Assembly (NCBI GenBank): GCA_963787095.1
Contig: CAWBCB010000152.1
Location: forward strand, 5,119-37,118
Length of the DNA stretch: 32,000 nt
From: an uncultured Cytophagales bacterium
GTDB lineage: Bacteria; Bacteroidota; Bacteroidia; Cytophagales; Cyclobacteriaceae
Direction of reading: 5' to 3'
The notes under the pieces were generated by a model that saw only the letters and a list, made by a program, of their open reading frames with translations, ran no database searches and was not told where the DNA came from. The translations under genes and the position numbers were made by a program. This document shows, one piece after another, positions 1,057 through 2,450 of this stretch. Within the stretch, counting starts at the first letter, position 1. Every line of letters starts with the position of its first letter.

Positions 1057-1672
1057 AGAGCGAAGGATCTCCCCATCAGACAAACGGCTTTCTTATTAGG
1101 GGATCCTTCGCTCTAGTATACTTCGGTCAACGAAAATGTTGTGTCTTCATGCAAGCATCATATACGAATGGCACAAGCTGGCCGCTCAGGATTGCGTTTC
1201 AATTTTTAGCGCGACCCGGAATCTACGATCAGTGATTTAACAAAAGTGGTTCGTGAGACACGAACCACGGAATAGGGAAGTGGTGTCATGAGGACACGAA
1301 ACAAGGAGTATGCATCAAATAAGTACCGGTCATTCCGGGCAAACAAGATACTTTTGATACAAAAACAAAAATGTAGTACTGGTACTTGTTTTAACTATTA
1401 AACCTGGCGCGACCCGGAATCTACGATTAGTGATTTAACAAAAGTGTTTCATGGGGCACGAACCACGGAATAGGGAAGTGGTGTCACGAGGACACGAAAC
1501 AAGGAGTAGGCATCAAATCAGTACCGGTCATTCCGGGCAAGCAAGATACTTTTGATACAAAAACAAAAATGTAGTACTGGTACTTGTTTTAACTATTAAA
1601 CCTGGCGCGACCCGGAATCTCCGATTAGAGATTTAATAAAAGTGGTTCGTGGGTCACGAACCACGGAATAGG
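1057..1672. repeat. repeat block A. It comprises a 58-nt hairpin (1057-1114), a ~94-bp leader, and a 198-bp tandem array (heads at 1209, 1407, 1605)
   Basis: GCGCGACCCGGAATCT recurs at 1209, 1407 and 1605, an exact 198-bp period. Units 1209-1406 and 1407-1604 differ by only about ten substitutions. The third unit is truncated after the ~66-nt head module. Each head carries GTGGTTCGTG-N3-CACGAACCAC (e.g. 1246-1268). Confidence 0.95.
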
Positions 1673-1738
1673 GGCAAAGGAATTTCCTATTAGAATATTT
1701 ACTCAAATTTAAGTTTGAAAACGTAAGAGCGTTGGCCC

Positions 1739-1896
1739 GGCCGAAAAGCCTGCCTGCGCGGAGCTTCGGCATAGGCAGGCGGGGTGGTGTGTTGGCATGA
1801 GGGGGGAAGCATTTTTCGGCCTTGACCTTTTTCGTTCTTTTTGTGCCTGCCTGCACGGAGCCGTTTCGGCAAAGGCAGGTCTAAGACAAAAAGAAC
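1739..1896. repeat. pair of nested GC-rich stem-loops between the two repeat blocks
   Basis: GGCCGAAAA (1739-1747) / TTTTCGGCC (1813-1821) encloses GCCTGCCT (1748-1755) / AGGCAGGC (1773-1780). GTTCTTTTTGT (1834-1844) / ACAAAAAGAAC (1886-1896) encloses CCTGCCT (1846-1852) / AGGCAGG (1873-1879). Confidence 0.8.
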
Positions 1897-1960
1897 AAAG
1901 AAAGAAAGTTTGATGCAATCTGTTTGCTGATGAAGTTAGTGTGTAAGTAAAATACATGAA

Positions 1961-2450
1961 AGAGCGAAGGATCTCCCCATCAGACAAACGGCTTTCTTAT
2001 TAGGGGATCCTTCGCTCTTGTATACTTCGGTCAACGATTAGGTTGTGTCTTCATGCAAGCATCATATAAGAATAGTGAAAGCCAACCGCTCAGGATTGCG
2101 TTTCAATTTTTAGCGCGACCAGGAATCTCCGATTTAGTGATTTTAATAAAAGTGTTTCGTGGGTCACGAACCACGGAAGAGGGAAGTGGTGTCATGAGGA
2201 CACGAAACAAGGAGTAGGCATCAAATCAGTCCCGGTCATTCCGGGCAAGCAAGATACTTTTGATACAAAAACAAAAAATGTAGTACTGGTACTTGTTTTA
2301 ACTATTAAACCTGGCGCGACCCGGAATCTACAATTAGTGATTTAACAAAAGTGGTTCGTGGGGACACGAACCACGGAAGAGCGCGACCCGGAATCTCCGA
2401 TTAGTGATTTTAACAAAAGTGTTTCGTGAGTCACGAACCACGGAAGAGGG
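1961..2450. repeat. repeat block A-prime, a second copy of the hairpin + leader + head/tail array (heads at 2113, 2314, 2381)
   Basis: 1961-2018 repeats the 1057-1114 hairpin almost exactly and the leader is also repeated. After that come one full head+tail unit (2113-2313) and two consecutive head-only modules (2314-2380, 2381-2450). Confidence 0.95.

Follow-up and report, generated by a model that had tools for sequence, protein, structure and literature searches.

The window analyzed here is a 32,000-nt stretch of DNA, positions 5,119-37,118 of contig CAWBCB010000152.1 (C152) of G000, a metagenome-assembled genome of an uncultured Cytophagales bacterium (family Cyclobacteriaceae) that is 75% complete and consists of 172 contigs. 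Between a gene for a DUF4230 protein and a cytochrome c gene, the window contains a gene-free gap of ~2 kb (2,065 nt long, upstream of cytochrome c), in which a long hairpin occurs twice, each time ahead of a tandem array built from two modules, H and T. A first-pass annotation described this arrangement as a hairpin-leader-array cassette present in two direct copies. Comparison with other genomes shows the hairpin to be the center of a larger nested palindrome, the unit, and associates this repeat family with a putative partner enzyme, a small single-domain GIY-YIG nuclease. The gap is probably (with a likelihood of roughly 0.7) a mosaic cluster of nuclease-partnered palindromic repeats, comparable to the bacterial interspersed mosaic elements (BIMEs), whose duplication and arrays would be by-products of recombination and slippage.

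The duplicated hairpin and the unit around it

The 58-nt hairpin sequence AGAGCGAAGGATCTCCCCATCAGACAAACGGCTTTCTTATTAGGGGATCCTTCGCTCT is present in exactly two copies in the window (1057-1114 and 1961-2018) that differ at no position, while no match would be expected by chance. The ~94 nt following each hairpin are 88-91% identical between the copies at an offset of 904 nt, and the arrays that follow differ in composition (H-T-H-T-H versus H-T-H-H; recovered by TRF as a period of 198 nt repeated 2.3 times and a period of 67 nt repeated twice). The first-pass annotation was thus right that two direct-orientation copies of the hairpin and the adjoining ~94-nt segment lie 904 nt apart with differing module counts. 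Its description of a strong hairpin is likewise borne out by folding: the predicted energy is -28.9 kcal/mol on the + strand (z -5.7) and -31.1 kcal/mol on the - strand (z -5.5), with z about -5.6 overall and 0 of 200 shuffled sequences as stable. The stem consists of 13 perfect pairs, extended by 3-4 more through a U-G pair or a bulge. The features of the gap are as follows.

895-1031, + strand: 71-nt tandem duplication covering the left terminus CAATCCAGAGCG, whose two copies lie at 908-919 and 979-990, and the initial ~45 nt of the left arm
979-1194, + strand: full 216-nt unit, beginning with the left terminus (979-990), the left arm (991-1056), and the hairpin (1057-1114)
1057-1114, + strand: central hairpin, copy 1, with the invariant stem base GCGAAGGATC/GATCCTTCGC
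1115-1194, + strand: right side of the full unit, comprising the right arm (1115-1182) and the right terminus CGCTCAGGATTG (1183-1194)
1195-1208, + strand: spacer CGTTTCAATTTTTA after the right terminus, kept after units of this subfamily in alignments with other species
1209-1671, + strand: array H-T-H-T-H (H ~67 nt, T ~131 nt)
1672-1960, + strand: "mid" mosaic segment with two inserted CCTGCCTG...CAGGCAGG mini-hairpins
1961-2098, + strand: right-half unit, comprising hairpin copy 2 (1961-2018), right arm (2019-2086), and right terminus (2087-2098), without left terminus or left arm
2099-2112, + strand: second copy of the spacer CGTTTCAATTTTTA
2113-2447, + strand: array H-T-H-H
1246-1268, 1444-1466, 1642-1664, 2152-2174, 2351-2374, and 2419-2441: hairpins of the H modules

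The boundaries of the unit were recognized through a related genome, G012, where homologous hairpins lie within repeated blocks, with CAATCCAGAGCG ~80 nt before the hairpin and CGCTCAGGATTG ~70 nt after it. These two sequences are inverted repeats of one another, and since the same signature recurs in the window at 979-990 and 1183-1194, the unit there is taken to span 979-1194 (216 nt). It is bounded by 12-nt inverted termini of the form CAATCC[A/T]GAGCG ... CGCTC[A/T]GGATTG. The hairpin is therefore not the 5' edge of the element in cassette 1, as had been proposed, since the conserved unit begins 78 nt upstream, at 979; the presumed leader is the right arm of the unit plus the 14-nt spacer. 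Cassette 1 holds a full unit and cassette 2 only its hairpin, right arm, and right terminus. A third partial copy (C152:3592-3715), found by a BLAST search of the whole genome, lies 1.4 kb before the window; it retains the 3' half of the hairpin and the "leader" at 93% identity and is truncated inside the hairpin loop. The 71-nt duplication at the left end of the full unit is supported by repeat-family detection (family D5, 89% identity), by TRF (period 71, 1.9 copies), and by the terminus motif scan.

Full-length homologues of the window unit (73-89% identity; pattern search and BLAST) occur in six other species; in all, at least seven species have full units that share the termini and the hairpin base. 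In an RNAalifold analysis of these homologues, the termini (12 pairs) and the hairpin (14 pairs) form closed stems in which every position is invariant, while the arms are variable and carry no structural covariation (covariation term +0.28; compensatory changes in 3 of 37 pairs). These comparisons show the unit to be a nested palindrome, with outer inverted termini, two variable arms of ~65 nt, and a central hairpin. A hairpin-leader-array cassette as a functional entity does not survive this analysis: what was named hairpin and "leader" corresponds to the center and right arm of a palindromic repeat of ~216 nt, which in other genomes precedes unrelated sequence, further units, or genes.

The candidate nuclease and the wider repeat family

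According to the terminus motif scan, units occur at only two loci in G000, the window locus on C152 and a cluster on a second contig (C28:40270-41880). The C28 cluster represents a second subfamily, with four full units and two half-units arranged around an open reading frame (ORF) of 101 aa (C28:40952-41254), which encodes a single-domain GIY-YIG nuclease (PF01541, E=6.8e-18, no other domain). Two full units lie upstream of this gene and a half-unit begins 10 nt downstream. For a survey of this association, the protein was searched against 177 genomes of the genus (G000 and 176 other species), and the 30 best loci were scanned for terminus and hairpin-arm motifs. Where the nuclease shares at least 64% identity with the C28 protein, such motifs lie within 1.5 kb at 17 of 18 loci; where it is a paralogue of at most 62% identity, they do so at none of 12. 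The combination of gene and repeat recurs in at least eight distinct gene neighborhoods in 17 species. In five genomes (G000, G046, G074, G180, and G057), the 3' hairpin arm follows the stop codon of the nuclease gene by 5-50 nt. In G133, the nuclease gene sits inside the loop of a complete unit, between GCGAAGGATCTCC and GGAGATCCTTCGC, in the order left terminus, left arm, GCGAAGGATCTCC, 50 nt, ORF, 25 nt, GGAGATCCTTCGC, right arm, right terminus.

The association extends beyond the phylum. One genome each from Thermoanaerobaculia (Acidobacteriota) and Planctomycetota contains small GIY-YIG genes with compact palindromes (TGTCATCCTGAGCG / GCGAAGGATC) on both sides, one of them inside a palindrome whose outer stem is likewise GTCATCC-GAGC; the identity of these nucleases to the C28 protein is 34-39% (E about 1e-21). 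No such link between repeat and GIY-YIG gene was found in the Legionella, Chloroflexota, and Ktedonobacteraceae genomes examined. A search of the PDB with the C28 protein returned only remote UPF0213 proteins (E=0.004), and NCBIfam holds no specific model for it. Taken together, the recurrent juxtaposition in genome sequences shows that this repeat family is paired with a small single-domain GIY-YIG nuclease, its putative partner.

Two further small GIY-YIG genes in G000 (C53:26115-26324 and C37:15202-15420) are located directly after tRNA genes, and each is followed by a duplicate of the 3' part of the tRNA. Within the C53 duplicate lies a CCTGCCTGCCGGTAGGCAGG mini-hairpin like the ones at 1748-1780 and 1845-1880 of the window.

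The stem base of the hairpin (GCGAAGGATC...GATCCTTCGC, loop 8-38 nt) is found in 20 of the 177 genus genomes, usually in multiple copies and often in co-oriented tandem clusters. Outside the genus, a scan of one genome per prokaryotic species located the same stem base at at least 120 loci in at least 12 other phyla, with hosts among the matches listed including Acidobacteriota, Chloroflexota, Planctomycetota, Gemmatimonadota, Legionellales, Bacillota, Actinomycetota, and others. The form in other phyla is compact, the hairpin lying directly within a second stem (TGTCATCCTGAGCG-nn-(GCGAAGGATC-loop-GATCCTTCGC)-nn-CGCTCAGGATGACA). Since the outer and inner stems are adjacent in the compact form, the Cyclobacteriaceae unit is an expanded version of it, in which a variable arm of ~65 nt separates the outer stem (ATCC[A/T]GAGCG) from the inner stem on either side. 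Short hairpins occupy the same two positions in some copies from Planctomycetota and Armatimonadota. Beyond the invariant 10 bp, the stem covaries: at the first three positions, the fractions of Watson-Crick pairs among 176 distinct loops are 0.71, 0.78, and 0.58, versus 0.50, 0.51, and 0.35 in a control with shuffled partners. This pattern indicates that the hairpin fold itself is under constraint in a single-stranded nucleic acid.

Beside the compact elements at these loci in other phyla, no recurrent true gene was found, only spurious ORFs running across the repeat; the nuclease link in other phyla emerged only when the search began with the gene. The peptides of these ORFs (e.g., CHPERSEGS, VILSEAKDL, SFASLRMT, and RYAQDDK; loci L033-L152) were, among the matches listed, the only "protein" clusters common to different phyla beside the repeats. 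Literature searches by the repeat sequence and by its spurious peptides returned nothing relevant, and a general search combining GIY-YIG with palindromes returned organelle papers only. A "landing-pad" origin, in which the loop would have been inserted into GCGAAG-GATC-CTTCGC with duplication of GATC, was considered and rejected, as no loop-less palindrome was found in an element context in the genome and loci examined.

Variation of the locus and competing explanations

Units upstream of the cytochrome c gene are restricted to the three closest species in which the region is assembled (G000, G066, and G084). In G000, the reference for protein identity (100%), the 2,065-nt gap contains one full unit, one half-unit, and the H-T arrays. 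In G066 (cytochrome c 90% identical), a gap of about 821 nt holds three variant units and one H; in G084 (87%), a gap of about 663 nt holds a right-arm piece with an H, followed by a full unit with a 17-nt H stub. In twelve more distant species (at most 81%), the gap measures 34-179 nt and contains no units. The presence of units only in the closest species implies that the cluster entered the site in a recent common ancestor and was then reshaped separately in each species. The first-pass suggestion of a dynamic locus is accordingly upheld by the two closest species in which it is assembled, G084 and G066, both of which carry units there in other arrangements. The comparison of module numbers in relatives that it proposed reveals differing counts (one H and the 17-nt H stub in G084, one H in G066), with T in neither. 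The 'mid' segment (1672-1960), together with its junction with the second hairpin, is a conserved block in G066 (L019, reverse strand 2480-2760), and its CCTGCCTG mini-hairpins are dispersed across the genus.

The hairpin of H (GTGGTTCGTG-nnn-CACGAACCAC) belongs to a distinct family of ~33-nt hairpin repeats with its own tandem arrays elsewhere; in G119 (contig C157), for example, nine or more copies stand in tandem behind a gene, and other families of the order contain scattered matches. Three species (G084, G066, and G065) have H directly after the right terminus of units. The start of T is a degenerate copy of the H hairpin. T was not found in the 176 other species of the genus, so the amplification of the 198-nt H+T combination is lineage-specific. 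T copies are 93-97% identical to each other; for H copies the figure is 88-93%, whether they come from one array or from both. The T copy nearest to T2a is T1b, and positional orthology of H and T between the cassettes gives no clear signal of en-bloc duplication. Exact-pattern scans of JGI metagenome contigs returned no match for T or for H, and exact-protein look-ups of the two flanking genes found none on record. A small peptide in T (MHQISTGHSGQTRYF), read by eye, was discarded as a candidate: its ATG is lost in the other two T copies.

A similar order of elements recurs at two other places: C152 at 0.2-1.5 kb before the window (L001, 3592-4907) and G012 (L012, 8395-9832). At both, a unit or half-unit is followed by a GC-rich tandem array (period 22/44 nt, about 8-15 copies) and an ORF; the ORFs (187 and 173 aa) are 44% identical and have no Pfam or PHROG match. 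On the other side of the C152 half-unit, a DEAD/DEAH-type helicase gene (L001, 1233-3593) is spread over at least four frames and stops abruptly at the half-unit (3592); its appearance is that of a gene in decay, cut off at the repeat.

Several features of the repeats themselves point to recombination. The right arms form a patchwork in which the copy upstream of the window (copy 0) matches copy 2 over the 5' half and switches to copy 1 over the 3' half, as recombination or gene conversion leaves it. The hairpin copies agree at 58 of 58 positions between flanks that are ~10% diverged (probability of zero change about 0.002). Half-units are broken at or in the hairpin in all four cases in G000 and in most cases in G066 and G133. 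These observations show that the cluster varies between species and that the copies within G000 are mosaics of one another; the supposed cassette duplication is thus a heap of selfish repeats in reshuffled order, not a leader-plus-array system. A mechanism can be proposed by analogy with the Ssn nucleases of Neisseria and their NTS hairpin repeats, which are compared below. The hairpin would fold when the DNA is single-stranded, at replication or during DNA uptake, and the nuclease would read the sequence and shape of the stem base and nick nearby. Nicking may aid the spread and persistence of the repeats, and breaks, insertions, and recombination events would concentrate at the hairpin. Recombination and replication slippage among the repeats would then have left, as by-products, the half-units, the patchwork of right arms, the tandem amplifications of 71 and 198 nt, and the duplication of ~900 nt. 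That the nuclease causes the breakage at the hairpin is inferred from its likeness to Ssn. Amongst the functions originally offered for the hairpin, a protein-binding site fits best; a terminator is not supported, as no terminator-like T-run follows the hairpin.

A further-reaching proposal, which is tentative and at present rather doubtful, regards the nested palindrome as the shell of an undescribed mobile element that would carry the gene of a single-stranded DNA (ssDNA) nuclease, or other cargo, in the loop of the recognized hairpin. The gene-less hairpins of the window would be miniature derivatives, and breaks induced by the nuclease would directly generate the adjoining tandem arrays and half-units. 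It draws on the GIY-YIG gene within the loop in G133 and on the ~1.3 kb of genes between half-units in G066. In the latter (contig C20; L019, reverse strand about 780-2290), left and right half-units that are broken in the loop face each other across a stretch with small membrane-protein-like ORFs, which may be loop cargo.

Compared with the mosaic cluster of nuclease-partnered repeats, other explanations of the gap are less well accommodated by the data. It is unlikely that the units, the H/T modules, or both are tandem genes for small structured RNAs in which the hairpin acts as an RNA processing or stability element. The strong fold, the T-run after the right terminus, the terminator-like hairpin with TTTTGTT on the - strand of each H, and the 95% conservation of H between two species would all suit such genes, as would a box on the + strand of each T (TACTTTTG, at 1349, 1547, and 2255), which matches the -7 promoter box of Bacteroidota (TAnnTTTG). 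However, no TTTG lies at the usual spacing for a -33 element, about two TAnnTTTG boxes are expected by chance in the region, and the three T boxes are copies of one module. A scan for sigma-70 promoters found no site on the + strand and two on the - strand in H, not above the expectation from shuffled sequence. Searches against Rfam 15 gave no match in the window at gathering score and chance-level matches only in 700-2850 at E up to 10; compact elements from 18 loci in other phyla gave none at curated or relaxed thresholds, and no tRNA or tmRNA genes were found in the window. Additionally, conservation of the termini and stem base is symmetric on both strands, the arms lack covariation, T occurs in G000 only, and half-units and loop cargo are hard to reconcile with RNA genes. 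An origin of the units as miniature inverted-repeat transposable elements (MITEs), i.e., as copies derived by deletion from an insertion sequence and mobilized by a classical transposase with the 12-nt termini as its recognition sites, would explain the inverted termini, the multiple copies, and the lineage-specific presence at the cytochrome c locus, but is quite improbable given that the unit flanks show no target-site duplication and that units are strictly co-oriented in tandem clusters and not scattered. Moreover, the GIY-YIG nuclease is the sole recurring gene near units and no transposase recurs there; the four Y1 transposase genes of G000 (Y1_Tnp, of the IS200/RAYT type) lie far from units on other contigs (C6, C104, C35, and C120), with units on C28 and C152 only. 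Very unlikely is an assembly artefact, even though the genome is an incomplete and fragmented metagenome assembly and 198-nt repeats are hard to assemble: the cassettes are ~9% diverged outside the hairpin, differ in module order, and have unique flanks, and the junction of the "mid" segment and hairpin of cassette 2 is also present in G066. The numbers of modules within each array may nevertheless be miscounted.

There are also observations that weigh against the nuclease-partnered repeat cluster as an account of the gap. H is 95% identical between G000 and G084, more than would be expected of neutral intergenic DNA, which leaves room for a function of its own. The genus loci in the nuclease survey are related by kinship, so that the counts of 17 of 18 and 0 of 12 are not fully independent. 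Several genomes (G145, G129, G066, and G084) contain many units and no close homologue of the nuclease in their assemblies, which means that units persist without the nuclease or that another enzyme acts on them. The C152 and C28 subfamilies have only the termini and the hairpin base in common. Finally, the published pattern for the Ssn-related motifs (SRM; HGTCWY N0-2 YYVSBRH N0-5 WNVSBRG N0-2 RNCYNB) has no match in the 32-kb window, the C28 cluster, or the compact element, and its six matches in the whole genome compare with about 0-12 expected after shuffling; an NTS-like control was matched by the same expression.

Implications and relation to known systems

Reading the gap as a cluster of nuclease-partnered repeats explains a puzzling gene-free region of 2 kb without a new RNA or array system, and ties the region to an enzyme, which makes the idea testable. 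The core of the palindrome (TGTCATCCTGAGCG / GCGAAGGATC) is nearly letter-perfect in over a dozen phyla, and near-identity of sequence over this range suggests a very widely shared recognition site. If the nuclease cuts the hairpin as ssDNA, it would represent a new specificity in a family whose use for manipulating ssDNA has been suggested. In genome annotation, the units are a source of spurious ORFs (e.g., the CHPERSEGS and ILSEAKDL peptides) and of contig breaks.

The closest counterpart is the Ssn system of Neisseria meningitidis, in which SsnA, a 94-aa single-domain GIY-YIG protein (CDD cd10448), binds the NTS hairpin repeat CGTCATTCCCGCGMAVGCGGGAATCYRG only as ssDNA and cleaves that DNA strand-specifically at a position shortly before the repeat, leaving dsDNA and RNA uncut (Chenal et al., Nat Commun 2025, PMC11893778). 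The ssnA gene is flanked by NTS repeats, for which the sequence of the loop does not matter and its length may be increased; Ssn homologues with SRMs of their own number in the thousands, and the authors noted the likeness of the system to BIMEs and to the pairing of repetitive extragenic palindromes (REPs) with REP-associated tyrosine transposases (RAYTs) (PMC11893778). The system described here shares with it a single-domain GIY-YIG partner of about 95-100 aa, a gene flanked by the hairpin repeat, the further occurrence of that repeat, both scattered and in clusters, in intergenic DNA, a conserved stem with a free loop, the (C/T)GTCAT tag (in the compact relatives from other phyla), and a comparable spacing of the catalytic Tyr, Tyr, and Glu residues (Y8, Y19, and E67 in the C28 protein versus Y6, Y17, and E64 in N. 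meningitidis SsnA). It differs in that the repeat is a nested palindrome of ~216 nt with two ~65-nt arms instead of a 28-nt hairpin, that the tag lies within the palindrome on both strands and reads CAATCC in Cyclobacteriaceae, that the nuclease gene can sit inside the hairpin loop, and that the Bacteroidota host G000 has two unit loci versus hundreds of copies. The C28 nuclease and its units thus resemble an Ssn/SRM system by analogy, which falls short of proven membership of the Ssn clade. If the partnership is real, the pairing of GIY-YIG nucleases with hairpin repeats, known from Neisseria since a first publication in 2025, would also cover Bacteroidota and a different, larger repeat architecture, the long-armed nested palindrome, that the published SRM motif misses.

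Likeness to CRISPR is confined to a conserved AT-rich segment followed by a tandem array in direct orientation, and that reading was rejected: the T modules that would serve as "spacers" are 93-97% identical, the would-be "leader" belongs to a palindromic repeat as one of its arms, and there is no cas gene among the ORFs next to the array (DUF4230 protein and cytochrome c). Palindromic repeats with a CGTC tag, for which no transposase was found, have been described previously (Di Nocera, De Gregorio, Rocco, BMC Genomics 2013, PMC3733652). These are also short, palindromic, and intergenic, carry a CGTC/TGTC tag, occur in several phyla including Bacteroidetes, and have no tyrosine transposase; they are single stem-loops of 20-40 bp, however, and lack the two-level palindrome, the long arms, and the candidate GIY-YIG partner. 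REPtrons, the association of REPs with a RAYT gene, have a HUH-Y1 enzyme in place of GIY-YIG, a much shorter unit, and a GTAG tag or end that is missing here. Nevertheless, the nuclease gene embedded in its own hairpin repeats recalls the REPtron, and the mosaic intergenic clusters, the tandem amplification, and the copy numbers that vary between relatives are features that the units share with REPs and BIMEs.

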